Shown piece by piece: positions 1-63,291 of a stretch of DNA of 64,000 nucleotides. Location: IMG/VR virus record IMGVR_UViG_3300005805_000059, positions 26,047-90,046 of that record. One strand, written 5' to 3'. Origin of the DNA: a virus (taxonomy: Duplodnaviria > Caudoviricetes). The notes beneath the pieces are model-generated. The model searched no databases, had not been told where the DNA came from, and saw nothing but the letters and a program-made list of their open reading frames with translations. The stretch's first letter is position 1. The number at the start of each line of letters is the position of its first letter. Position numbers and translations under genes: made by a program.

Positions 1-589
1 CCTTGTCAAATCTTACGGCTTTTGTCCAATTATTTAATGCCCAATGTCCAATACCACAGGCATCTGCAATGTCATTATCAGTAACTACTTTATCATAGTA
101 AACTTCTACAAGTTTAATTGTTCTTTCTTTTCTTACATTACGCTCGTATGTTTTATACCACGAATTTGATTTGCCAGGATGTTGCTTTCTAATTTCTAGT
201 TGCTCATCCTTGCTTAACTTCTTGTTACCAAGATAATTCTGCCAAGTGATTGGAGATACCCTGCCAATTTCTACAATACCTGCAATACCTGCAGCACCTA
301 TGATAGCCCCTTGAACCAATGCAAGATCGGCAGCAGTCTTAGGACTATTCATAAATACTGTGTGTTCTATAATTAAAGAGTGTGTATCTGAAAAGGTGGG
401 GTGTCTAAAGAATGCCGATATCTTCTTAGATGCATCAATACACTTCTCATATATAGTGTCGCCAAGAAAGACTATCTTTCCAGTAAACACAATCTTGTCT
501 GAATCAAACAAAGCAAATGCAAGATTATTAGTACTAGCATCAACAGATATAAACTTTGTAGGTTTATTCGTCAGTGGTATTTTTGCCAT
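1..589 (-). CDS. ruvC: RuvC-like Holliday junction resolvase (runs off window edge; not in ORF track)
   Basis: Manual translation MAKIPLTNKPTKFISVDASTNNLAFA...IIEHTVF...NDIADACGIGHW shows the RuvC acidic motifs (D in strand 1, E, DxxD). Confidence 0.75.
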   Translation of the reverse strand, partial: MAKIPLTNKPTKFISVDASTNNLAFALFDSDKIVFTGKIVFLGDTIYEKCIDASKKISAFFRHPTFSDTHSLIIEHTVFMNSPKTAADLALVQGAIIGAAGIAGIVEIGRVSPITWQNYLGNKKLSKDEQLEIRKQHPGKSNSWYKTYERNVRKERTIKLVEVYYDKVVTDNDIADACGIGHWALNNWTKAVRFDK

Positions 590-863
590 TCATAAATCCT
601 TTCAGTTGTTTCATTTGTTTATCTAATTCTTTTTTATTGATGTTACAAGCATTACACAGAACATCATCATTATAGATAGATAGTTTCTTACCACAGCCAC
701 CTGCACAAATTTTTGGTTTAGAAAGTCTTTTCCTTCTTTGATTAGCGACATATCTTTCTGCAATCTTTATCTTAGTTGCTTCTGTCCTACACTCAGGACT
801 GCAATATACCTGATATGTTACTTTAGGTTGAAATGTATTGTCACACCACTCACAAGGCTTCAC
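564..863 (-). CDS. Zinc-finger hypothetical protein
   Basis: CEWC..YCSPEC and CAGGC..CNAC cysteine pairs; overlaps neighbours. Confidence 0.6.
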   Translation of the reverse strand: MKPCEWCDNTFQPKVTYQVYCSPECRTEATKIKIAERYVANQRRKRLSKPKICAGGCGKKLSIYNDDVLCNACNINKKELDKQMKQLKGFMNGKNTTDE

Positions 864-1635
864 TTAAATCCTCCAGGGACTTGATAGTAATCTGCCCTGC
901 TCCTGCTAATTCACAAGTTTTTGAAATAGGACAAGTCTTACAGATCTTTGAGTTAGACCTATAATTTTTCTTAGGTAACTTTTTATCTACCCAAGCCTTT
1001 CGTACTTCTCTCATCCACTCTAGTGAATTATCTACCCATTTAACATACTCTGCCTTTACTTCTACTGGATACAAAAATAACTCGTGAGTATTTTTGTTTT
1101 CATAAATAAGGACACCCTTTTCCCTATTTAATAACTTCATGTATAGAAGTAGTTGCTTTAGATGATCTTTCTTTGGTGTATTAGTCTTCTTACGATACTC
1201 AAATGCTTCCATGTTAGAAGTTTTAATTTCACCAACGATTACTTCACCTTCCCATTTAATGAGAACATCTCCGAAACCAAAGATTGGTGGATCATCACAA
1301 ACAATTTTGAATTCTTTATCAATAAGAATTCCAGAACCTTCAATAGCCTTTTCAATACGAGTATGTGATAGTGTTCCACTGCTCATATTTGCTGCACCAT
1401 ATGGATCTGTATTATCTTCAAAGTCTGCACCTTCAAATGCAAGATACCAATATCTTGGACATTCTCCGTGACTATAAACAATTGTTGATGGTGCAAATGT
1501 TTTCTTTGTCGTAAACTTTGTTCCTCTATCAGCAAGATAACCTGATTCAATCTTTTCGATAAGAGCCTTTGTATCTAAAGAACTCTTTTTCTCAGCAGGT
1601 TTCATCATAACTTGCTGTAATAAACTTTTTGCCAT
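850..1635 (-). CDS. Cas4-like PD-(D/E)XK exonuclease with 4-Cys Fe-S staple
   Basis: N-terminal ECPRY, central GFGD..GEIKT, QLLLY motif, C-terminal CKTCPISKTC. Confidence 0.8.
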   Translation of the reverse strand: MAKSLLQQVMMKPAEKKSSLDTKALIEKIESGYLADRGTKFTTKKTFAPSTIVYSHGECPRYWYLAFEGADFEDNTDPYGAANMSSGTLSHTRIEKAIEGSGILIDKEFKIVCDDPPIFGFGDVLIKWEGEVIVGEIKTSNMEAFEYRKKTNTPKKDHLKQLLLYMKLLNREKGVLIYENKNTHELFLYPVEVKAEYVKWVDNSLEWMREVRKAWVDKKLPKKNYRSNSKICKTCPISKTCELAGAGQITIKSLEDLSEAL

Positions 1636-1667
1636 TTTAGACCTTTCGTATCATACTATTATACCAT

Positions 1668-1970
1668 CTATCGCATGATATATTTGAGTGCAGCAACTAA
1701 ATTGTTGACTGCTTCTGCTGCAGTATAATAAATATTCTTCTTAGATCTATTTGATTTATCAACATTAGCATACCAAGTTGCCATAAAAGCCATCTTAGAA
1801 GCGATAGCCTGTAGCCTTACAATTTCAAGACTAGCAACATGAGGTGGAATATCTGGCTTAACTATAAGTTTAGCAATCATAGTCAATGCTGTTGTAAGTT
1901 CTTCATCTTCCATAAACTCAGCAATCTCAGCCAAACCATTTATTTGTTCAAGTGTTGTTTTGTCTTCCAT
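1668..1970 (-). CDS. Hypothetical helical protein
   Basis: 100-aa ORF, abutting neighbours in operon. Confidence 0.6.
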   Translation of the reverse strand: MEDKTTLEQINGLAEIAEFMEDEELTTALTMIAKLIVKPDIPPHVASLEIVRLQAIASKMAFMATWYANVDKSNRSKKNIYYTAAEAVNNLVAALKYIMR

Positions 1971-2260
1971 TATTCTTCCTCCATTAGTTGTTCAAGCAAT
2001 GCTAATTCTACAACTGCAAGTCGAACCTTTTTATTACCCTCTCCAATTACCACAATAATTGCTGGAGACTTATCCTTACCTGCTTTGATAGCATCAGTAG
2101 TAGCCTTAGCCCACACATCTTGATTAAGTGTAAATGACTTTGATACTTCTTTGAAGTCAACAACAAACAATTCCCAAGTCGCATCACCTTTTACAGTACC
2201 ACGACCAGAATTTTTATGTTGTCTAGCCCCTATTCTCTTGCTCTCGCTCTTCTCGCTCAT
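1970..2260 (-). CDS. Small PD-(D/E)XK nuclease, Hjc-type resolvase-like
   Basis: NSGRG..KGD..VDFKE..SFTL pattern; 96 aa. Confidence 0.55.
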   Translation of the reverse strand: MSEKSESKRIGARQHKNSGRGTVKGDATWELFVVDFKEVSKSFTLNQDVWAKATTDAIKAGKDKSPAIIVVIGEGNKKVRLAVVELALLEQLMEEE

Positions 2261-2429
2261 AATCTCTCTTTGTCTTTTTTATAGGTGTCAACTGCACCTC
2301 TGATATGTGTCCTTGTTTACATCTCCAAGATGAAAGACCAGACTCTTTCCATACACGCATTGACCCAACATTTTCTTTACAAGTCTTGCAAGGAAAAATT
2401 CCTGGGTATACAGAATATGATTTAGACAC
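2223..2429 (-). CDS. Zinc-ribbon hypothetical protein
   Basis: CKTC...CKQGH. Confidence 0.5.
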   Translation of the reverse strand: MSKSYSVYPGIFPCKTCKENVGSMRVWKESGLSSWRCKQGHISEVQLTPIKKTKRDYEREEREQENRG

Positions 2430-3429
2430 TTAGTACCTTTGCCTTAATCTGATCTTGTAGGTCAAGGTCTTCTCTTACACGAGCAACAAATGCATCTCTA
2501 CCCTGAACCTTTGTGCCATCATCTAATTGATACCAAGCACCTGTTCTAGTAACGATACCAAGCATTTCTGCTGTATCTACAAGATCACCAATCTCATCTA
2601 CACCTACATCATTACCTCTAAAGTAAAAGTCATACTCTCCACTTTGGAATGCTGGAGATGTCTTTGAGAACTGTAATTCCCAACGAACCTTACGACCAAT
2701 CTTTTCTTCAATTAGTTTATCACCAACTGCAATCTTGCCTTTTAGTGCTTGGTTGTCAGACTCAGAGGAGAACAACTTAATAATACTTGACGAGTAGAAC
2801 TTGGTTGCTTGTCCACCTGATGGTTGCTGACTTGTATACATAGCACTGATATTATTTCGTGACTGACTAATTAAAATAATCAATGTTGGCTTTACTTTAT
2901 TATTTGCATAATTAAGCATCTTCCAAGCATTACTAAAGTCACGAGACTCTGCACCAATCTGTTTAGTGTTCTCTAATTCCTTTAGTTCGTCTGTACCCTT
3001 CTCAAAATAAATAGCAGGTAATAGTGATGTGATCGAATCAACCACAATAATATCTACACCAGCATTAAGAAGATTAGTGCCAACATCAACCATATCGTTA
3101 ATAGTGCGAGCCTCAGAATAAATTAACTTATCTGTGTCTACACCAAGACGAGTAGCCCAATCAGCAGAGAAAGACATCTCAGCATCAATCCAAGCACATA
3201 CTTTGCCTTCTTTCTGAGCCAATCCAATAGTCTGGAGACACAAGGATGATTTAGCACTAGACTTACTACCCCAAATCAATACTTGCCTTCCATATGGCAA
3301 TCCACCATTCATAGCCCTATTAAGACCATAACTAGGTGTTGGCTGATATTCCACATGAATACCAGTTCCTGTTCCAAGACGCTTACGAATCTTTGGGTCT
3401 AACTGTGCTAATACATCATCTACTGACAT
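2422..3429 (-). CDS. recA: RecA/UvsX-like recombinase
   Basis: GGLPYGRQVLIWGSKSSAKS (Walker A), CAWIDAE, IIVVDS (Walker B), GGQATKFYSS, GAWY; start moved to MSVDD at 3429. Confidence 0.92.
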   Translation of the reverse strand: MSVDDVLAQLDPKIRKRLGTGTGIHVEYQPTPSYGLNRAMNGGLPYGRQVLIWGSKSSAKSSLCLQTIGLAQKEGKVCAWIDAEMSFSADWATRLGVDTDKLIYSEARTINDMVDVGTNLLNAGVDIIVVDSITSLLPAIYFEKGTDELKELENTKQIGAESRDFSNAWKMLNYANNKVKPTLIILISQSRNNISAMYTSQQPSGGQATKFYSSSIIKLFSSESDNQALKGKIAVGDKLIEEKIGRKVRWELQFSKTSPAFQSGEYDFYFRGNDVGVDEIGDLVDTAEMLGIVTRTGAWYQLDDGTKVQGRDAFVARVREDLDLQDQIKAKVLSV

Positions 3430-3431
3430 TG

Positions 3432-3635
3432 TCAATTTTCTATCCAACCTTTCACTATTGCTGCATCCTCTTCGTGTGTACAATCACTGTAACAACAAGG
3501 AGTTGTATTATCGTTTGGCGTATGCCATTTCAAAATATCTTGTGCAATCTTTGCTCTAACTTTTTGTACAACCTTGTGAGTGCCATTGCAATCACCATCT
3601 GGATCAGTTGTAAATCCACAACCACACTTAGCCAT
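3432..3635 (-). CDS. CDGSH-like iron-sulfur microprotein
   Basis: CGCGFTTDPDGDCNGTH resembles the CDGSH 3Cys-1His motif. Confidence 0.5.
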   Translation of the reverse strand: MAKCGCGFTTDPDGDCNGTHKVVQKVRAKIAQDILKWHTPNDNTTPCCYSDCTHEEDAAIVKGWIEN

Positions 3636-3952
3636 TAGAATCGTACTCCGTGTTTCTCTGGTCGCTCTGTATTCTTTTGCATTTTATTAATGACAGCCCA
3701 ATCTAAAGATATTGAAGTATATTTGTTTTCTACTAATCCTGCATACAAATCAAGTACACGGATAATAATATCTGCAAACTCAAAGGCTATCTCTTCTTCG
3801 CCCTTTTCTTTTCTAATCGCTTCCATTGCTTCTACAACTTCTGACACAATCATCATCAACTGTTTAGCAATAAAAATATCATCAACTTCTTCGTGCCAGA
3901 AACCTTTTTCTGTAGCAATGGCATGAACTTGTTCTGCTAACTCATCAAACAT
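3635..3952 (-). CDS. mazG: MazG-like nucleotide pyrophosphohydrolase
   Basis: SEVVEAME and EIAFEFADIIIRVLD acidic helices. Confidence 0.8.
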   Translation of the reverse strand: MFDELAEQVHAIATEKGFWHEEVDDIFIAKQLMMIVSEVVEAMEAIRKEKGEEEIAFEFADIIIRVLDLYAGLVENKYTSISLDWAVINKMQKNTERPEKHGVRF

Positions 3953-6900
3953 TTTCTATATCCTCCAATATCGGTGTTCCATCTTTAGTCTTACCAAAGA
4001 CAAACTTATAAACATTTCCCTCTTTAATATGCATATACGCTTTAGCAAAAGCAGTTGGGAATACTGTGATAGAGTGTAATTCTCTACCAGCATCTGCTAC
4101 TGTAAGCGAAGCCATTTTCTTACCTGTCTTAGTGACTCGTGGCTTAAACGAGACTACATAATGCTCACCTTCTTTGTATGGCAACATCTTGTAGTTCAGG
4201 AATTTAACTAATGCTTCTTTAGATTCTTTGACTTCATCAACAGGAATATAAGAAACAATTCTATTATCTGATGCAAGAATAATATATGTTCTACCAGACT
4301 CAATCTGTGTATTCTCTTCATCAAAGATACCGATAGATCCTGTCTTGTCTAGAACTTCCACTCTTGACCAACCCTTTGCCCTCTTAATCGATTTTACCAT
4401 ACCCATTACGATAAATGCACCTTTCTCTTCATACTCATCAATATCATTGATGTATGCGTGATAGTGTTGTGGTACGGTCATATTGAACTCAGGCAAATTA
4501 AGATATTCATATAGATTTTCTTTTACCTTATCCTGATTGAGAGGATTGTCGGGGAACGATAATGCACCAATTGCATTCATTGCTTGCAATGCACGACTAT
4601 TCACTCCATTACCCTTTGTAAAAGTAAACTCTTCTACTTCTTTGTAAGACTTAAATGGTCGTCCAGCAATGTATCGCTCTGCAATCTTGTCTGAAATATA
4701 TTTAATTGCAGAGAGACCGAATCGAATACCCTTGCCCTCAATCTTAAAATCAATATCTGATTCATTGATATGTGGCAACTTGATTGCAATGCCCATACGC
4801 TTTGCTTCAATAAGATACTCTGTGCGAGCATCCTTATCCTTTTCATTCTTTAGGATTGAATACATAAACTCAAGTGGGTAGTAATACTTCAACCAAGCAG
4901 TCCAATAGGATAGAGTTGAGTATGCTACTGCGTGAGACTTATTGAATGAATACCCTGCGTGTGCTTCAAAGTCGTGCCATAGATCATTAGCCTGACCTGG
5001 CAAGATGTGTTCTGATGCACCCTTTACGAATCTATCTCTAAACTCATTAAATTCTTTTGCATCTTTCTTCTTACCAATAATCTTACGAACCTTGTCTGCT
5101 TCTGCCATTGACATACCACCAAGTTTTACGCAAGCAAGCATAACTTGTTCTTGGTATAAAACTAGACCATAGGTTTCTTCTGTGAACTCTTTAATAATTG
5201 GATGTAAGTAACTAATCTTTGATCGTCCGTGTTTACGGTCAAGATAAAGTTTACCAATGGTATTCATAGCACCAGGACGAACGAGTGCATTAGAAGCAGC
5301 AAGTTCATCAAGATTCTTTACACCCATCTTTACAAGAAGGTTTGTGTATGGTGTGGCTTCACATTGGAACACACCTTTTGTGTATCCGTCTGACAACATC
5401 TGATAAACATTTGCATCGTCCATCTTGATGTCAAGCAAGTTAATCTTTTTACCTTCTCGCTTTTCAATAATATCTACGGTGTCTTTGATGACTGATAAGG
5501 TTTTGAGTCCAAGAGCATCAATTTTGATGAGTCCGATTTGTGCAGCCTCTTCCATATCAACCGCCACAACAGGTATACGCTCATCGCTACCAGTAGAAGA
5601 CCGTGTTTCCAACGGTGCGTATTTAAAAATAGGATCTTTAGAAGTAACAACGCCAGCAGCGTGTATGCCAGTACCTCTAATACGACCACGAAGTTGTTCT
5701 CCATATTTCTCCACTTCAGGGTATTTATCTCTAAACCATTGAGCATTCTTTGATGTGCAATACTCATCCCAAGTATCTACACTCTTCAAGACTTTATTTA
5801 CATCTGGAAGTGGAATATTCAATGCACGACTAACATCTCGCACTACACCCTTATCCTTAAACTGTAGGAAGGTAGCAATAGATGCAACATTCTTATATTC
5901 TTTTACAAGATAATCTTTTACTTCATCTCTGCGTGAGTCCTGAATATCTGAATCAATATCAGGGAAGTCATTACGCTCTGGATTAATAAATCGGAAGAAT
6001 AGCAATCCGTGTTCAATAGGATCAATATCTGTAATACCAAGTGCATAGCAAAGCAAAGACCCTGCAGACGAACCACGACCTGGACCGACCATAATGTCAT
6101 TTTCCTTAGCCCAGTTCAACATATTACGAACAACCAAGAAGTAAGCCCCGAAGTTTTTATCTTTAATGATTTCTAGTTCTTCTTTGAGCCTGTCCTCATA
6201 GACAGTATCACCAGTGTGCTTACTTGTAAGTTTGCGTTGTTCTAAACCATCAATTGCTAACTTGTGCAATTGTGCTTGTGGATCATCATATTGAACAGGT
6301 AGTAAGTCAAGGTTTTCCTTGATATCATACTGCTCAATCTTATCTGCAATCTCAAGCGTAGACTCAAACATATCTTGTCTGTCGAATCCTTGCTTTGCCA
6401 TAGCCTCTTTCATTTGCTCGTATGACAATAGATGAATATCAAATCGATTAAACGACATCATTCTATCTTTGCCATACAAGTAGTCTAGGCGTTCCATCAT
6501 ATCTTCATACTTCTTAGACTTCTCAAATGTCACACCCTTTTCTAGTTTAGCGTGAGTGTTGAGAATAAGCATCATCTCTTGGATTACTTTTTGATCTACA
6601 TCAGAATGATGACAATCAGGAGTAACTACAGGTTTAACACCAAATGCGTCTGCTAGTTCAAGAATACCCCTGTTTACTTCTGGTGGATTATGTGGCATAA
6701 CTTCCAAATAATAATCATCACCAAATACATCCTTGAACCAACTAATCTTTTCTTTGGCTACTGCTAGTTCGCCTAGTTCTACAGCCTTTGCTACCCAACC
6801 ACTTAAACAAGCAGAAGTAACAATAAGACCTTCGCTATACTTTTCTAATACCTCAAAATCAAATCGTGGCTTAGAAAAGAAACCTTCTGTCCAAGCAATC

Positions 6901-51721: not shown

Positions 51722-51949
51722 TCACAAAATATAGTTACTAATGCCAATTACTGCAACGCCAATAGGTGCAGCGGTACTTGGTCCGTACCCTGGAATTTCT
51801 ATATTTGTGAACCTCACTCTAAAAGGAATATCTGCTCTAGCAAAAGAACTTCGATTCTGTAAATCAGTAATCTTAACTGGTGCAAGGACTTCAGTAGTTG
51901 ATGCCTTAACAATACGAGATGTTATGTCTGTTACCCTTGCAATCCCCAT
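51722..51949 (-). CDS. Hypothetical virion protein
   Basis: Ends APIGVAVIGISNYIL; coupled. Confidence 0.5.
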   Translation of the reverse strand: MGIARVTDITSRIVKASTTEVLAPVKITDLQNRSSFARADIPFRVRFTNIEIPGYGPSTAAPIGVAVIGISNYIL

Positions 51950-52326
51950 TAGTCTGTTACATCCTCAATAATAATCATTTTGCCCGCAGCAATTGTCCAA
52001 ACACGATCTCCATCTGATAACTGAATATCAAAGATATCGTCTGTTTCTAGGACTTCTGATTCTGATGCTTCAAGATCAACAGTGAACTCGCCATCACCAT
52101 CATCTACGCCCTGTTCAGGAATTAACGATAAAATAACATTTTCTGTTGATGGTCTATAAATATCCATAGCAATGTTCCAATCTGGAATTTCTAGTGGAAT
52201 TTTGTTACTGTCTGTTACATAAACACGGAACGCAGCCGTATCTCCCCTCACAACCGTCCAGGTAATCTGGGGTGGGGGTGAGCCAATTTCGAAAGAAGAG
52301 GCTGAAGAATTACGATAAGTAGCCAT
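51949..52326 (-). CDS. Ig-like baseplate adaptor (BppU-N-like), paralog 1
   Basis: WTVVRGDT...FDIQL..VWTIAAG.M.IIEDVT. Confidence 0.5.
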   Translation of the reverse strand: MATYRNSSASSFEIGSPPPQITWTVVRGDTAAFRVYVTDSNKIPLEIPDWNIAMDIYRPSTENVILSLIPEQGVDDGDGEFTVDLEASESEVLETDDIFDIQLSDGDRVWTIAAGKMIIIEDVTD

Positions 52327-56002: not shown

Positions 56003-56596
56003 CTATGATGATACAACCGATATAAATACCTGTACCGATTGCTCTCCTGTTAAATTTGTTGCAGTGCTTCCTGTAAAGGACACACCTTTAAAAACTAATC
56101 GTAAATTTTTAACACTACTTATTGTCTGAATTGATTTAGTTACAGAACTTGCAATAGGTAAACTGTTAACTATATTAAACTGAACATTAAATGTGTTTGC
56201 ACTTGTTATTGCATTAATTTCAGATGATGTAGCATCTGGTAAAATTTCAGATAATGGAATATCTTTAGTTACGCTACCAGAGTCAAATGTTAATGCATAG
56301 TTTTTTGCGAATAATACTGGAGATACCTTTACAATTGGCTTCCAAATATCACCGAGTGCTGGATCATTAATGTATTGATAAAGATATGAGCCTCCAGAAG
56401 AAGATATATCAAGAAACATATCATAAAGTTGTATAGGCTCTGCTGGCAAATCAGTTTCAGGATCTCTTGGATCCCCATTACCAGAAAATATCTTTGTTCC
56501 ACGAATACCCTGTGGACCAACATCTACTAAAAGATCTACAACTTCTGGTGGTCCAAAAACAACAATGTCTGCAGTATTCAATAGAACATCTGTCAT
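56003..56596 (-). CDS. Putative minor tail protein
   Basis: GPQGIRGT..GDP; start moved to MTDV at stop/start overlap 56596. Confidence 0.55.
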   Translation of the reverse strand: MTDVLLNTADIVVFGPPEVVDLLVDVGPQGIRGTKIFSGNGDPRDPETDLPAEPIQLYDMFLDISSSGGSYLYQYINDPALGDIWKPIVKVSPVLFAKNYALTFDSGSVTKDIPLSEILPDATSSEINAITSANTFNVQFNIVNSLPIASSVTKSIQTISSVKNLRLVFKGVSFTGSTATNLTGEQSVQVFISVVSS

Positions 56597-56943
56597 TATA
56601 TTGCTCCTGTAATATCGTTTGTTACTGTAATTGTCCCAGTTAAAATTGTATAAATAAGAGTTCCGTTTGTAATCTGCACATCGTATACATATGTTCCTGG
56701 TGCTAGAGGACGACCCTGTGCTGGAGTAATTGTGCAAGTAACTGTATTGTTTCCTGTATTAACTACAGCAGTTGCAGGATATTGTGTTACATTTGCACCA
56801 GACCCTCTTAAATTAGCAATAGTAAATGCTGCACTATATCCTGTTAGTGGAAATGCAGTGTTGCTTGAAGTTTTTGGTCGAACTACCATTTCGTAACTAT
56901 CTCCACGATAGTAATTAAAATTGTAAGTTGATGGAAATGCCAT
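56596..56943 (-). CDS. Ig-like baseplate adaptor (BppU-N-like), paralog 2
   Basis: YYRGDSY..YVYDVQIT..ILTGTITVTNDIT. Confidence 0.55.
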   Translation of the reverse strand: MAFPSTYNFNYYRGDSYEMVVRPKTSSNTAFPLTGYSAAFTIANLRGSGANVTQYPATAVVNTGNNTVTCTITPAQGRPLAPGTYVYDVQITNGTLIYTILTGTITVTNDITGAI

Positions 56944-57038
56944 TATCTCACCTTTATAACCTTTCCATCTACCTTAATGACAGGCGGTAGATAAGAATTA
57001 ACTGTACTTACCTTTACTACTGGTGGTAAATCTGTCAT
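56943..57038 (-). CDS. 31-aa microprotein MTDLPPVVKVSTVNSYLPPVIKVDGKVIKVR
   Basis: Manual translation; fills gap exactly with overlaps at both ends; GGAGGT RBS. Confidence 0.55.
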   Translation of the reverse strand: MTDLPPVVKVSTVNSYLPPVIKVDGKVIKVR

Positions 57039-57430
57039 AATAAACCTCCAGGTGTTACATCTCCAATAACATTAATTGTTCCAACGACTGGTGTCCAAGT
57101 GTAGTCTCCACCCATAGTAGGAATTGTTACTTGAAGATCAAAAATTAAATTTGCTATAGAAAATCCGTACGCTGTTCCCCAATTTTCTGTGACAGATGCA
57201 GGTGCTGTAATGGCAACACTATGTCCTTCGGATTCAATAGTTAGTTCGTCAAGAACATCTCCAAATTTATCATACGCTGTAGCAACATATGTCCATCCTT
57301 CAGTATCCCATCCAGTAGACTCATCTGATTCTAGAAAATCTATCATTAGTGTTGCTGTGTCACCACGCACAACATCCCAAACAATATTTGCTGGAACAGA
57401 CCCAAATCGTGTATTATTTATTCCGCACAT
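57035..57430 (-). CDS. Ig-like baseplate adaptor (BppU-N-like), paralog 3
   Basis: WDVVRGDT..FDLQV..WTPVVGTINVIGDVT. Confidence 0.55.
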   Translation of the reverse strand: MCGINNTRFGSVPANIVWDVVRGDTATLMIDFLESDESTGWDTEGWTYVATAYDKFGDVLDELTIESEGHSVAITAPASVTENWGTAYGFSIANLIFDLQVTIPTMGGDYTWTPVVGTINVIGDVTPGGLL

Positions 57431-57449
57431 AGTTACATAATTATATCAC

Positions 57450-57504
57450 AAAAAACTACCGCCTAGGGGCAGTGGGTGGGTAGAGAGCAATCCTAGACGG
57501 CAGT
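57450..57504 (-). ncRNA. Candidate ~55-nt hairpin small RNA
   Basis: 13-bp stem (2 G-U pairs on minus strand only), 24-nt C-rich loop, U-tract, promoter directly upstream. Confidence 0.6.
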
Positions 57505-57510
57505 CGTATA

Positions 57511-57539
57511 ATTATACCAGAACGGACATAACTTGACAA
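57511..57539 (-). promoter_or_regulatory. Promoter for candidate sRNA
   Basis: TTGTCA, 17 bp, TATAAT with TGn extension. Confidence 0.7.
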
Positions 57540-57593: not shown

Positions 57594-57788
57594 CTACTTA
57601 TTGATAAGAAGGGAATAAATCTCATCAACTCTAGATTCAAGTCTATCAACTTTGTCTTTTAGAGAAGATCCACCATTAGGCTTGAGTTCGGACAAATAAT
57701 GTTTGACAAGCCACTTGACAGCAGCACCAAAACCTGTTACAATTGATATAACACCGACAATGACGGCGATCCATTCGTTTGCTTGCAT
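57594..57788 (-). CDS. Holin-like single-TM membrane protein
   Basis: N-terminal TM helix then PNGGSSLKDKVDRLE coiled coil, a pattern I recall from actinophage lysis-linked proteins. Confidence 0.5.
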   Translation of the reverse strand: MQANEWIAVIVGVISIVTGFGAAVKWLVKHYLSELKPNGGSSLKDKVDRLESRVDEIYSLLINK

Positions 57789-57831
57789 ATTGTCTTAATT
57801 ATACACATAATTTTAAGGAGAACTTCAAAAA

Positions 57832-58578
57832 ATGAAAGATGCTATATTAGAAACTTTAGACTACTCGGACAAAATCATCATATCCCCTGATATTGATGGC
57901 TTTTCGTGTGCAAAAATGTTAGCCGACTACAACAACTCGCAAGTGGTCGGTTTGTATGACAAGAACATTCTCGTTTTAGCCGAGCACATCAATCCGATAG
58001 AATGTTTATTTGTTGATTGTGATATGAACGCACCGTATGTCAGCATCGGCAATCACATGCGACTGTCTGACGACAATATGAGCATTATCTCGTTTAACCC
58101 AAACACCTATTATGATGTAAAGCAGTATACGAGCAAATTCCCATACGCAACGGCGTTTTTGATCGCCCACGCATTAGAGGTTGAGACCACACATACGACC
58201 AAAATACGCATGAGTTATGCAGATAGCACATATAAGAATGCTAAGAAATATGAGAGTAACATGCGAGCCTGGTCGGAAAAAATGTGGGATGACAATGTAA
58301 AATTTGTCCTTGATGAAAGTAATTATTTGGACATTGACCGACTGTCTTTAGAATATCCAAAACAAGCATTTGTGTCAAGACGAGTGAATCCACAGACTTA
58401 TATTGATAAAATTCAAGAAGAATTGTCTAATTGGGGAATTCCTTCTTTACCCCTCGTAAATTACCAAAAATTTGATACTGGACTTGTGGATAAGACTACG
58501 ATCAAAAGATACATGGATGATATAATATCTTATGCAGAGATTTATACAAATGAATACTCTGTGACTTATAGGAAGTGA
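57832..58578 (+). CDS. DHH-superfamily-like phosphoesterase (tentative)
   Basis: IISPDIDG, LFVDCD, IGNH; RBS AAGGAG. Confidence 0.4.
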   Translation: MKDAILETLDYSDKIIISPDIDGFSCAKMLADYNNSQVVGLYDKNILVLAEHINPIECLFVDCDMNAPYVSIGNHMRLSDDNMSIISFNPNTYYDVKQYTSKFPYATAFLIAHALEVETTHTTKIRMSYADSTYKNAKKYESNMRAWSEKMWDDNVKFVLDESNYLDIDRLSLEYPKQAFVSRRVNPQTYIDKIQEELSNWGIPSLPLVNYQKFDTGLVDKTTIKRYMDDIISYAEIYTNEYSVTYRK

Positions 58579-60184: not shown

Positions 60185-60207
60185 ATTGTAGCATTACCCT
60201 CTGACAT
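60185..60207 (-). promoter_or_regulatory. Leftward TGTCAG-N10-TACAAT promoter
   Basis: Same box and spacing as the three rightward cassettes. Confidence 0.6.
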
Positions 60208-60246
60208 CAGGAATTGTCCTATTTTGTCCGAATTTAGATCTAGGAA

Positions 60247-60350
60247 TGTGACCTAATTCACAAAAATAGTGGTGTCCTATTTGTCATAAAAAAACGGACA
60301 TATCCGACAATATGGGACATTTGAATGTCAGACCTATGCCTTATTATTGG
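60247..60350 (+). repeat. Early promoter cassette 1 (CRP-type site, GGACA boxes, TGTCAG-N10-TATTAT)
   Basis: TGTGA-CCTAAT-TCACA at 60247-62; ungapped alignment with cassette 2. Confidence 0.8.
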
Positions 60351-60379
60351 AGTGTACCTAAAAGAAAGGGGTCTCACTA

Positions 60380-60574
60380 ATGACCAAAAAATTCACCTCA
60401 CTAGAGGAACTCAAAAATTTCGTTATCGCTGAAAAAATTGCAAACTATGAAAAGCAAAAGCAAATAGAAAATAAACTATTCGCTTCACTTGCTAATGCTG
60501 AATTGCAAGAGTGTGCTAGATGTGGTGCTGATGTATCACCTACAACACACCCTGAAATTGGTTGCGACTACTAA
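60380..60574 (+). CDS. Early microprotein with CxxC
   Basis: RBS AAGAAAGGGG; CARCG. Confidence 0.65.
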   Translation: MTKKFTSLEELKNFVIAEKIANYEKQKQIENKLFASLANAELQECARCGADVSPTTHPEIGCDY

Positions 60575-60588
60575 GAAAGGTAATAACT

Positions 60589-60753
60589 ATGAATAAAAAT
60601 TTACTAGATTGTGATTGGTGCTTTGAATACTATCCGTTTGATGACCTCTACAATGTAGACTACAACGATGGTTTCTGTAATGTATTGTGTCCTCTTTGCT
60701 TGTCAATGGCACAAGAAGAAATGCCTAATAGAATAGAAAGTGTGTGGAAATAA
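60589..60753 (+). CDS. Early zinc-finger microprotein
   Basis: RBS AAGAAAGG; CDWC..CPLC. Confidence 0.65.
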   Translation: MNKNLLDCDWCFEYYPFDDLYNVDYNDGFCNVLCPLCLSMAQEEMPNRIESVWK

Positions 60754-60896
60754 TGAGAGATACAATAATGCTGTTTATCGTAATGGATGATACTAATCAA
60801 GTGTACGCAATGTACGACAATTTGCAAGACGCTGAAAATGTAATTGCAAAAGTTGGTAATGAATTTTGGTACATAGATACAGAAGAGGTATGCTAA
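60753..60896 (+). CDS. Early microprotein, 47 aa
   Basis: TAATG coupling at both ends. Confidence 0.55.
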   Translation: MRDTIMLFIVMDDTNQVYAMYDNLQDAENVIAKVGNEFWYIDTEEVC

Positions 60897-61078
60897 TGAA
60901 GAAACTAAACTACTATGAGCGTGACGCTATGCTTGAGCAATCTATTGAATTTATCAAGCAAAAGTACGGCTTCAATCGTGATAGGGCTTCTGTCGTACTT
61001 ATGGGAATGATGTTCTCTTTGATAAATGATAGTGACTTAGAACTAATACTAACTGTTGCACAAAAGGAGCGTGACTAA
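60896..61078 (+). CDS. Early hypothetical protein
   Basis: TAATG coupling; GAGG RBS. Confidence 0.6.
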   Translation: MKKLNYYERDAMLEQSIEFIKQKYGFNRDRASVVLMGMMFSLINDSDLELILTVAQKERD

Positions 61079-61290
61079 TGAACGAACTAAACCCCTATAC
61101 CCTTGAATACATAATCGCTGACCTACAAAAGAAATTGGTGAGTTACAGAAAAGACTTTGCCTTTGGATTGAGTTGGTCAGAACCTCAACGGCGTGAGCGA
61201 ATTGGGCAAATAAAATTGCTTGAATTGCTAATTGCAAACTATGAAAATAGATTGAGTGAATTGCTGATTGACCTTGACAATCAAAAATAA
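61078..61290 (+). CDS. Early hypothetical coiled-coil protein
   Basis: AAGGAG RBS; coupled. Confidence 0.6.
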   Translation: MNELNPYTLEYIIADLQKKLVSYRKDFAFGLSWSEPQRRERIGQIKLLELLIANYENRLSELLIDLDNQK

Positions 61291-61447
61291 ATTTGGAAGG
61301 TATTCTGTTTATTGTGGTAAAGTGGTTATCACAATAAGCAATTTACATTCTGCAATTGAATACGCAAAAGAATTTGACGCAACAAAAGTTGTAGATGAAA
61401 AAAATAAAATTGTGTGGCAAAATTCCAGGATCAGCAAAATAGGGTAA
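61274..61447 (+). CDS. Possible early protein, 57 aa (TTG start)
   Basis: Open frame up to the next non-coding cassette; weak RBS. Confidence 0.35.
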   Translation: MTIKNKFGRYSVYCGKVVITISNLHSAIEYAKEFDATKVVDEKNKIVWQNSRISKIG

Positions 61448-61457
61448 ATCAGACAGG

Positions 61458-61594
61458 GTGCATGCAAGTCGGGCAAATCGGACATCCAGGTGTGACTAAG
61501 ACCACAAAAATACTTATGCCCGAATTGTCATAAAAAAAGGTACATATCCGACTTTTTGGTACATTTCAATGTCAGACCTATCGCTTATTATTGC
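61458..61594 (+). repeat. Early promoter cassette 2
   Basis: GTGCATGCA, TGTGA-CTAAGA-CCACA (61491-506), TGTCAG (61570), TATTAT (61586). Confidence 0.8.
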
Positions 61595-61612
61595 CTTGTA
61601 AGAAAAAATAAA

Positions 61613-61714
61613 TAGTGTGTAGGTGAGCCTAGCAAATAAATCTGAGGTGAGCCTGATTAGAAATAATCAGCAAATAAACTCAGAGTGAGCCTAGCAAATA
61701 AACTACACACACTA
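61613..61714 (+). ncRNA. Candidate branched cis-regulatory leader RNA with three GUGAGC..CAAAUAAA units
   Basis: Three nested stems and three motif copies between promoter and RBS. Confidence 0.7.
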
Positions 61715-61732
61715 ACTAAGAAAGGTGTCACT

Positions 61733-61897
61733 ATGACAATTACAGAAATTGAAAATTCACTAGAAATTTTAGAAACCTATGAAACTACTTGGTGTGAAAT
61801 TCATAAGAATTTTATTAGCCTCGCTGAGTGTGTTGAGTGCGAGATGTCTACTTGTGCAGACTGCCTTCGTGCTTATGGTTGCGATAACTGTTACTAA
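61733..61897 (+). CDS. Early Cys-rich microprotein
   Basis: RBS AAGAAAGGTG; WCEIH..CVEC..CADC..CDNC. Confidence 0.65.
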   Translation: MTITEIENSLEILETYETTWCEIHKNFISLAECVECEMSTCADCLRAYGCDNCY

Positions 61898-61911
61898 AGA
61901 AAGGTAAAACT

Positions 61912-62073
61912 ATGAAAACTAATAATCCGTTTATGGACATTCTAAATTGTAAAGAATGCAACGGCTCAGGCTATTTTGGCTTTAGCGTTGCAGGTGTTTG
62001 GGAATTTACATTCTGCAAATGCAATCCACATAAATTAGACTTGTCAGGTTTCAAAAGGAGTGTGACTAAATGA
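61912..62073 (+). CDS. Early zinc-finger microprotein, 53 aa
   Basis: RBS AAGAAAGG; CKECNGSG..FCKC. Confidence 0.65.
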   Translation: MKTNNPFMDILNCKECNGSGYFGFSVAGVWEFTFCKCNPHKLDLSGFKRSVTK

Positions 62074-62243
62074 TGACAAGAAAAGACTATGTAACTACTG
62101 CCGAAATTCTAAACGGCAATCGCTATTTCATAACTGAAATGGTATTCATTGAAATGGTAAATGAATTTGCAGACTATTTTGCAAGTGATAATCCTAGATT
62201 CAATCGTGAAAAATTTATTTCTGCTTGCAATGGAGGTAAGTAA
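62070..62243 (+). CDS. MTRKDY/DNPRF family microprotein, copy 1
   Basis: RBS AAGGAG; paralog at 63624. Confidence 0.7.
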   Translation: MMTRKDYVTTAEILNGNRYFITEMVFIEMVNEFADYFASDNPRFNREKFISACNGGK

Positions 62244-62329
62244 TGAAACTACAATTGAAATGTGTTGAGTGTTCTCAGTGGATAGACGCTGATGAATTCG
62301 CTTGGGGACACGATTGCGAAGTGGCGTAA
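62243..62329 (+). CDS. 28-aa zinc-finger micropeptide
   Basis: GGAGG RBS; CVEC..HDC. Confidence 0.55.
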   Translation: MKLQLKCVECSQWIDADEFAWGHDCEVA

Positions 62330-62385
62330 AGCCACCTAGCAACACCCCGACACGCCCGAGGTCGGCATGCACTCAAGATCAGGCT

Positions 62386-62523
62386 GTGCATGCAAACCAG
62401 ACAAATCGGACATTCTGATGTGATAATACTCACACAAACCAATTTTGTCCTATTTGTCCTAATAAATAGGGCATTTCCGACTTTAGTGGACATTCAGATG
62501 TCAGACCCCTATGTTATTCTTAT
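62386..62523 (+). repeat. Early promoter cassette 3
   Basis: GTGCATGCA, TGTGA-TAATAC-TCACA (62419-34), TGTCAG (62499), TATTCT (62515). Confidence 0.8.
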
Positions 62524-62561
62524 CCTGTAAGTAAAGAAAGTCTCTTGAAAGGAGAACTCAG

Positions 62562-62726
62562 ATGATAGTTTCAGTTAGTGTCTATCCTAAGAACGACAAT
62601 GCAATGCCGTTCAAAATAAATTTCCCTAATCGTGATGAGGCTAATGCCTATTGCGAAGCAATAAGTAATCGTTGCGACTTCTTCGTAATGGAATTTCCTA
62701 ACGAAGTTTATCGTGAGTTAGACTAA
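62562..62726 (+). CDS. Early microprotein, 54 aa
   Basis: RBS GAAAGGAG. Confidence 0.6.
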   Translation: MIVSVSVYPKNDNAMPFKINFPNRDEANAYCEAISNRCDFFVMEFPNEVYRELD

Positions 62727-62740
62727 GAAAGGTTGAACTA

Positions 62741-62869
62741 ATGTCTAGAAATGTCTACTATCTATCCTGCGAAATTTGCAGAATTTCATCTACTCTATCG
62801 GGAGTAAAGGTTTCAGGTTCTAAAATAATCTGCAACGAATGTTATTCATCAGTATTGGAGGTCAAGTAA
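62741..62869 (+). CDS. Early zinc-finger microprotein, 42 aa
   Basis: RBS AAGAAAGG; CEIC..CNEC. Confidence 0.65.
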   Translation: MSRNVYYLSCEICRISSTLSGVKVSGSKIICNECYSSVLEVK

Positions 62870-63024
62870 TGAATAAGAAAACTAAAATTTACAATTTGCA
62901 AAAATTAATTGATAATCAAAATTGGTTGAAAGACCAATTGGCTAATCACCCAAGTGATACGCTAATGGTTGAACACTATCAACAGATGATAGACTACTAC
63001 TCAAAGAAAGTTTGGGGTAAGTGA
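62869..63024 (+). CDS. Early microprotein
   Basis: GGAGG RBS; TAATG coupling. Confidence 0.6.
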   Translation: MNKKTKIYNLQKLIDNQNWLKDQLANHPSDTLMVEHYQQMIDYYSKKVWGK

Positions 63025-63152
63025 TGGCAGTTGCAATTGCACTTTGCACATCGTTTGGATGTACAGGCATAACTGTATTTGAAGATGTGCCTTCGTGTTT
63101 CAAACCTGTTGACATTCCTTGCGAGACTTGTCAACCTGTTGCGAGAGTGTAG
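63024..63152 (+). CDS. Early Cys-rich microprotein, 42 aa
   Basis: TGATG coupling; 5 Cys incl. CETC. Confidence 0.5.
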   Translation: MAVAIALCTSFGCTGITVFEDVPSCFKPVDIPCETCQPVARV

Positions 63153-63190
63153 GGCGATCAGCCCTCACTCAATGCCCGAATTGTCCGAGT

Positions 63191-63291
63191 GTGCATGCAC
63201 CCAAAGCATGCGACCTGTGGTGTAAATCACACAAAGATGTCCGATTTGTACGCATTTTGGATTTGACTTTTTCAGAATTTTATGGCAAACT
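63191..63291 (+). promoter_or_regulatory. Early promoter cassette 4 (variant)
   Basis: Two GCATGC, TGTGG-TGTAAA-TCACA (63216-31), TTGACT-17-CAAACT with TGn. Confidence 0.6.

Follow-up and report, generated by a model that had tools for sequence, protein, structure and literature searches.

C-rich-loop RNAs and the phage hairpin

The 6C/B11 RNAs (RF01066) are chromosomally encoded and consist of two or three hairpins, whose C-rich loops bind G-rich single-stranded sites of mRNAs without participation of Hfq or ProQ (PMC6486639). The element described here, a single phage-encoded hairpin on the minus strand of a 64,000-nucleotide stretch of viral DNA (in the following, the window), resembles 6C/B11 in that it would give rise to a short, promoter-driven RNA of the actinobacterial world presenting an unpaired C-rich loop as its functional surface. 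It differs in having no sequence or model similarity to 6C/B11, and in its much longer loop (about 15–25 nt) with a fixed CUCUC..ACCCACC core. With the 6C model, neither the window region nor the complete genome of the phage gave a match at E ≤ 10; the hairpin RNA did not reach the 6C gathering threshold of 47 bits, and whereas 6C RNAs are recognized by two adjacent hairpins with at least six C residues in each loop, it has one hairpin and one loop with 12 C. A further mark of 6C RNAs is the repression of translation when their loops pair with G-rich mRNA sites. A retrieval of 6C RNAs from five actinobacterial genomes for loop comparison returned no matches. The general Rfam comparison (Rfam 15) that the first-pass annotation of this DNA had recommended matched no known family, neither at E ≤ 10 in the window region nor at E ≤ 1 in six typical members of the phage family.

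RsaE/RoxS of Firmicutes and CcsR/“cuckoo” of alpha-proteobacteria likewise present C-rich motifs in their loops, directed against ribosome-binding regions rich in G. These RNAs stem from other phyla and distribute several short CCC/UCCC motifs over several loops, whereas the phage RNA has a single loop which, unlike the motifs of RsaE/RoxS and CcsR, is not an anti-Shine-Dalgarno sequence. An analogy with C-rich-loop RNAs of Gram-positive bacteria had been drawn in the first-pass annotation; the assignment to the C-rich-loop kind held, whereas the nearest analogue is 6C/B11 and not an RsaE-type RNA, because the host is an actinobacterium rather than a Firmicute (see below).

Among phage-encoded RNAs, the c4 immunity RNAs of phages P1 and P7 and the CI immunity RNA of phage P4 are also small stem-loop RNAs with the recognition sequence in exposed loops. 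They are, however, processed from longer transcripts and pair with their own phage operon, whereas the hairpin RNA is predicted to be a primary transcript and its loop has no complementary site in the phage genomes examined; the loop thus lacks the complementarity to the same phage genome that characterizes antisense immunity. To our knowledge, hardly any small RNAs have been described from actinobacterial phages, and what is known of the phages that infect the dominant actinobacteria of fresh water comes mostly from metagenomes alone.

With intrinsic terminators, whose loops usually measure 3–8 nt, the hairpin has in common a G+C-rich 13-bp stem directly followed by a tract of five U residues, and it very probably ends its own transcript. 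It departs from them in its 24-nt loop, in place of a short unconstrained loop of about 3–8 nt, in a loop sequence that is better kept than the stem, and in a dedicated promoter that is directed straight into the hairpin. The hairpin represents a new, widely conserved family of phage small RNAs of a known general kind, the C-rich-loop sRNAs.

The phage and its presumed host

The window, corresponding to bases 26047–90046, is the right part of a ~90-kb lake-water virus record, a 90,046-bp IMG/VR entry with direct terminal repeats, and the public runs that contain DNA of this phage are lake or freshwater metagenomes. The phage is long-tailed, has a genomic G+C content of 36%, and codes for a 2943-aa tape-measure-like protein, a portal protein, a DnaE-type polymerase, and a class II ribonucleotide reductase. 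A WhiB protein (48 bits, exceeding the Pfam cut-off) is encoded as well. WhiB proteins are exclusive to Actinobacteriota and regarded as a key indicator of actinophages (PMC10202952); the phage is thus an actinophage.

The word TGGTATAAT (or TGATATAAT), followed by 6–7 nt and a start codon, recurs about 12 times in the genome on the gene strand. Start codons located 6–10 nt past such an extended −10 box, and hence leaderless or nearly so, are found on the minus strand of the window at positions 51724, 45770, 41627, 37883, 35844, 9117, and 52344, with further sites elsewhere in the genome. Since this arrangement recurs so often, leaderless mRNAs transcribed from extended −10 promoters are the usual form of gene start in this phage, which documents a phage clade with many leaderless genes. 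Leaderless mRNAs are typical of actinobacteria, and the leaderless genes together with WhiB point to an actinobacterial host and not to a Firmicute. Other genes of those same operons have classical GGAGG sites; ribosome-binding sites of the phage take the form GAAAGG in early genes and GGAGG in late genes.

Structure of the hairpin locus

The first-pass annotation had recognized, on the minus strand, a promoter of the form TTGTCA-17-TATAAT leading into a 13-bp stem with a 24-nt C-rich loop and a U tract, followed by a separate promoter of the next gene, and this description was borne out in every element. In the upstream promoter, termed P1, the −35-like hexamer TTGTCA (57539–57534) is separated by 17 nt from TATAAT (57516–57511), which is preceded by TGG and so forms the extended −10 box TGGTATAAT (57519–57511), the same word as that found before the approximately 12 leaderless gene starts. 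The −35-like hexamer is specific to the window; most relatives are devoid of a −35 box, and ATGTCCGTTTT occurs at the corresponding position of P1 in relatives. A promoter scan scored P1 with 11 of 12 matches plus TG, but as it returned 36 promoter-like sites in the region versus 45 expected, the P1 match alone is not above chance; it is conservation in relatives, and not a promoter match in a single sequence, that raises the hairpin element above chance.

The predicted transcription start, A57504 (or G57505), is the first base of the 5′ arm ACUGCCGUCUAGG (57504–57492), six nt past the −10 box of P1. The arm pairs over 13 bp with the 3′ arm CCUAGGCGGUAGU (57467–57455), and two stem positions which are not Watson-Crick pairs are G-U on the minus strand and C-A mismatches on the other strand, as had been noted before. 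The apical loop AUUGCUCUCUACCCACCCACUGCC (57491–57468) comprises 24 nt with 12 C and only 2 G; this conserved, nearly G-free loop is open in the RNAfold prediction except for a possible 2-bp GC/GC inner helix, which is invariant in relatives. The stem is followed by five U residues (57454–57450), at which the RNA is predicted to end by intrinsic termination. The extended −10 box TGATATAAT (57448–57440) of a second promoter, P2, lies immediately downstream, and the ATG of the next gene is located at 57430, nine bases beyond it.

RNAfold assigned the hairpin a free energy of −23.9 kcal/mol (z = −4.3), and none of 200 shuffled sequences was as stable. A terminator scan picked up only a smaller alternative hairpin at this locus. 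Because the hairpin of about 50 nt with its 13-bp stem begins at +1, it leaves no space for a coding frame. Judged from its sequence, the locus combines the generic features of a stand-alone sRNA gene, namely a promoter, a terminator, absence of coding capacity, and a covarying structure.

At position 57473 of the window, the C run of the loop is longer by two bases in a high-depth contig (95 of 106) from an independent freshwater metagenome; the insertion agrees with the family consensus and represents natural variation in the length of the C tract. A second C-rich stretch, CCCCCCUACCCCCC (57584–57571, minus strand), is located upstream of P1 in the 3′ untranslated region of the preceding 64-aa gene, and was not seen at that place in the relatives inspected. 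A single RNA run contains part of the window, in contigs that span neighboring genes at 56899–57390 (originating from a relative) and 57764–58181, so that the hairpin lies outside of them; contigs and standard libraries are, in any case, unsuited to show an RNA of 55 nt.

Distribution and modular organization

A module consisting of promoter, hairpin, U-rich tail, promoter, and leaderless gene occurs in more than 150 IMG/VR contigs, once per genome. A search with the 131-aa protein encoded downstream of the hairpin returned 25 IMG/VR loci (~55% aa identity), all of which possess the module in the order −10 box, 6–7 nt, hairpin, U-rich stretch, −10 box, 6–9 nt, ATG. Scanning of IMG/VR for the loop motif, with filtering by fold, yielded at least 61 distinct hairpins, and a homologue of the 131-aa protein (49–63% identity to that of the window) is encoded downstream of every hairpin listed among these. 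A profile search with the protein produced more than 476 loci; when 80 of them were fetched, 71 had the hairpin just upstream. Searches with the covariance model likewise detected one hairpin per genome or locus, and no further copies or iterons of the hairpin were found within the phage genome. The idea of a mobile hairpin element was discarded, as the hairpin is single-copy and syntenic and its arms covary.

The geometry of the module was evaluated in 86 distinct type-1 homologues. The distance between the end of the P1 −10 hexamer and the first paired base is 3–8 nt, with a mode of 6, in 76 of the 86, and at least five T residues occur within 9 nt past the stem in 71. The promoter that the first-pass annotation had assigned to the next gene recurs as a P2 −10 box in 77 homologues, 4–16 nt past the last paired base (9–16 nt in 75 of them; mode, 12); it carries TGn in 77/77, and the start codon follows after 6–9 nt. 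Given the conserved geometry of P1, stem, and tail, the predicted product is a primary transcript of roughly 55–65 nt, made up of the hairpin with a short U tail attached. As many relatives have an interrupted U tract, some read-through from P1 is conceivable. As TGGTATAAT and a spacing of 6–7 nt recur before start codons in this phage, P1 is built like the gene promoters of the phage, with the hairpin standing in the place of the start codon and gene.

Two natural variants separate the hairpin from its neighbor. In one relative (L318), P2 and the neighboring gene with its leaderless start are kept without the hairpin, whereas another (L271) has the hairpin in front of a promoter and a leaderless gene that both differ from the usual ones. 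These variants argue for an RNA that is independent of the neighboring gene and, along with the conserved distances of P1 and P2, are in line with the earlier proposal of a stand-alone small RNA extending from its own promoter to the U tract.

Beyond the metagenomic contigs, megablast of the 2-kb region against GenBank phages gave no match. A loop-motif scan of species genomes revealed a true hairpin in none of the matches listed (at least 120), and the covariance model did not match in 151 evenly drawn Actinomycetota genomes, these cellular negatives denoting absence from the genomes searched and not proof of absence.

Covariation and conservation of the loop

The search for homologues and covariation recommended in the first-pass annotation strongly supported a paired RNA. 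In an RNAalifold consensus, 11 of 13 pairs have undergone compensatory changes. In a model-based alignment of 62 distinct copies with 828 stem cells, 97.2% of the cells are standard pairs; each of the 11 main-helix pairs shows double changes, and the alignment contains 151 compensatory cells. In 500 column shuffles, none of these pairing measures was ever reached, and when the partner was slid by 1–3 columns as a control, pairing dropped to 27–57%. G-U or U-G pairs account for about 10% of the stem cells; because they would turn into C-A mismatches on the opposite strand, pairing is selected only on the strand transcribed from P1.

Conservation is higher in the loop than in the stem or the flanks, with mean major-allele frequencies of 0.91 (1.69 bits) for the loop, 0.74 for the stem, and 0.54–0.64 for the flanks, and this conservation holds across phages whose adjacent proteins are only about 55% identical, i.e., the loop evolves more slowly than the neighboring protein. 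The first-pass annotation had reasoned that a stem kept without its loop would indicate a plain terminator; the opposite was observed. Since the loop sequence is kept while the stem drifts with compensation, the hairpin, by its sequence, appears to be neither a plain terminator nor the leader of the next gene, and it is very likely a selected, independently transcribed structured RNA.

The type-1 loop has the consensus G-UUGCU-(cucu)-A-CCC(C)-A-CCCC(C)-ACUGC-C, in which variation is limited to the short 5′ part and to the number of C residues; the family core is CUCUC..ACCCACC(C)..ACUGC. The top pairs of the stem are near-invariant (C-G in 60 of 64 and A-U in 61 of 64). A more distant subtype 2, whose loop reads (U/C)GUCUCUCAUACCCACCGA, shares the promoter geometry, covaries in 8 of 12 stem pairs, and was found in 46 further contigs, many of them from records of at least 60 kb and about a dozen of 94–123 kb. 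Its copies precede several different genes at varied genome positions. The core common to both subtypes is CUCUC(A)UACCCACC. Covariation in 11/11 pairs, a promoter that fixes strand and start, a loop evolving more slowly than the adjacent protein, occurrence in more than 150 contigs, and the existence of two subtypes are rarely combined in an RNA candidate from metagenomes. The family is suitable for inclusion in RNA family databases, and the RNA is short enough for direct synthesis and testing.

Possible modes of action

By analogy with 6C/B11 (PMC6486639), we rank first a stand-alone RNA that acts in trans by base pairing, and assign this statement as a whole a probability of about 0.4. A host RNA polymerase of the sigma-A type would start at P1, with +1 either on the first paired base (about 57504) or on the base preceding it, and would transcribe the 13-bp hairpin with its 24-nt unpaired, C/U-rich and almost G-free loop. 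Transcription would stop in the U tract (57454–57450), releasing an RNA of ~55–60 nt in which the loop is the sole exposed surface. The stem would then act as scaffold and terminator, and the loop as the working part that pairs, chaperone-free, with single-stranded G-rich stretches of host, and possibly phage, mRNAs.

This pairing model has to be reconciled with the results of the target searches, in which no site complementary to the loop was conspicuous in the phage genomes examined. Perfect complements of the loop in five related phage genomes were limited to the antisense strands of the hairpins themselves, and near-matches equaled the control. A duplex scan of the phage's own genome gave a best value of −29 kcal/mol (at ~2446, minus strand), which is within the range of −26 to −34 kcal/mol obtained with shuffled loops. 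The search for phage targets suggested in the first-pass annotation thus produced nothing above chance, and the ribosome-binding sites of the phage itself, GAAAGG and GGAGG, show no complementarity to the loop. Matches to the loop complement in five small actinobacterial genomes were fewer than in the reversed control. A loop of 24 nt would also be unusually large as a seed region, and the invariance of its UUGC and ACUGC flanks and of the uppermost stem pairs would also be compatible with a protein as the binding partner.

The same stand-alone RNA might instead offer its loop and the conserved top of the stem as a specific protein-binding site, either as a decoy or sponge for a host factor with a preference for C-rich, G-poor single strands (Rho or KH/S1-type proteins being candidates) or as a partner of a phage protein. 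We regard this as unlikely, although conservation at the UUGC and ACUGC edges and in the near-invariant top stem pairs exceeds that of a plausible seed, and a base-pairing target was not found in the phage genomes searched. Rho prefers C-rich, G-poor unstructured RNA, and an unstructured loop with 12 C to 2 G has just this composition; 24 nt are, however, short for a full Rho site, and the variation of loop length and C count among relatives is something that a precise protein site might not tolerate. With respect to a phage-encoded partner, the constant neighbors are only a tail Ig-like protein and a small membrane protein, with no candidate among them, and subtype-2 copies adjoin other genes.

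It is quite improbable, in our estimation, that the hairpin works in cis, as a terminator or insulator which heads the tail gene block, ends the transcripts of the 64-aa gene and of P1, and hands over the polymerase to P2. Such a role would agree with the terminator-like hairpin and U-rich tail (at least five T of nine in 71/86), with its being the first strong hairpin past the upstream gene in relatives, and with another promoter within 4–16 nt of the stem in 77 of 86 copies; yet a terminator needs neither a 24-nt loop nor an invariant one, P1 is situated at a conserved hexamer-to-start distance from the stem so that its transcript would be the hairpin alone, and the downstream gene of L318 retains P2 and the leaderless start without any hairpin. 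5′ stabilizers classically consist of a stem that begins at +1, and the hairpin could accordingly protect the end of an mRNA that reads through from P1, but such an mRNA would have an internal AUG without a Shine-Dalgarno sequence. A further variant of the cis model would attribute the conservation of the loop to a regulator that binds the loop DNA, which is located at about −45 to −70 relative to P2, and the operator-like TGTCCG motif associated with P1 could be cited in its favor; a site in double-stranded DNA cannot, however, account for the G-U-specific covariation of the arms.

A DNA-level element, i.e., a hairpin extruded in single-stranded or supercoiled DNA for replication priming, packaging, or recombination, is very improbable: its position, about 300 nt from the divergence of minus- and plus-strand genes at 57.8 kb and close to the lowest value of the cumulative GC skew, and the tolerance of G-T wobbles in DNA hairpins would suit it, but the promoter placement is exact and conserved, the U-rich tail is present on one strand only, the element is devoid of iterons or repeats, and subtype-2 copies are found at varied genome positions.

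Some other ideas were considered and rejected. An anti-Shine-Dalgarno mimic would require CCUCC, which is not contained in the loop, and the sites of the phage are GAAAGG and GGAGG. An N4-type DNA-hairpin promoter was dismissed because the 2943-aa protein is a tape-measure protein and not a virion RNA polymerase, a template-strand G-quadruplex because the fourth G tract is not conserved, and pairing with the 5′ coding region of the neighboring gene because the matching segments are in the wrong order.

Returning to a trans-acting RNA, a more far-reaching proposal, which we consider somewhat doubtful, would see in the family a minimal one-hairpin class of riboregulators, present in hundreds of uncultured freshwater actinophages, whose invariant, G-free loop recognizes one conserved host component (a set of mRNAs, or a C-binding protein such as Rho) for take-over of the host. 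If so, phages would carry a functional counterpart of 6C that acts in bacteria ranking among the most abundant of fresh water, and both the RNA family and its target would be new. A partner of the loop, if found, would show action of phages on their hosts at the RNA level.

Neighboring genes and regulatory motifs

The 131-aa gene downstream of the hairpin (57430–57035, minus strand), whose start 9 nt past the P2 −10 box is leaderless or nearly so, is a conserved neighbor but lies outside the RNA itself. Its product belongs to phrog_1084, of which three paralogues are encoded on the minus strand of the window (57035–57430, 56596–56943, and 51949–52326); many homologues of these Ig-like proteins start with Met-Cys. 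The structural model of the 131-aa protein is an all-beta sandwich (pLDDT 86.8), and its best structural matches are small Ig-like tail-tip or baseplate proteins of T5 and DT57C and a mycobacteriophage baseplate protein (E values of 1e-7 to 5e-5). The fold search was more informative than a comparison of the family profile with PDB sequences, which resulted in a weak match only (E = 0.19). With a tail Ig-like protein predicted from the fold as its neighbor, the RNA gene would head a block of tail accessory genes. The conserved upstream neighbor (57788–57594, minus strand; stop at 57594) codes for a 64-aa protein of phrog_9869 with an N-terminal membrane helix and a coiled coil; its transcript may also end at the hairpin.

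Words of the type TGTCC(G/T)(A/T)T, often in tandem (TGTCCTATTTTGTCCTAT), cluster beside early promoters at both genome ends, i.e., at 60215–63238 of the window and at 188–4551 of the whole-genome record, and are probably the operator of a regulator. One copy, TGTCCGTT (57528–57521, minus strand), is located within P1 as a possible operator; in relatives the motif takes up the −35 position of this promoter. Its presence in P1 and in the early regions suggests that P1 may share a regulator with the early genes. In the early promoters, ATGTCAGACCCT-N2-TGCTAnAAT precedes a ribosome-binding site of the GAAAGG type; they occur at 1182, 3087, 3521, and 4582 of the whole-genome record (plus strand) and at 60193 of the window (minus strand). 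In relatives (positions 2780–2900 of L021 and equivalents), a long non-coding stretch with repeated TATAAC/GTTATA words and a conserved AAACGGACAT box precedes P1; this stretch resembles a regulatory region, and the window does not contain it in this form.

Words of the CCCACCC type occur nine times in the genome, compared to 3.1 ± 1.7 in dinucleotide shuffles. The loop-like 11-mer CACCCCCACCC has three further copies, at 52278 of the window (minus strand) and at 3572 and 5889 of the whole-genome record (plus strand); one of these codes for Pro-Pro-Pro within a paralogue of the neighboring gene, and one forms the 3′ arm of a terminator-like hairpin.
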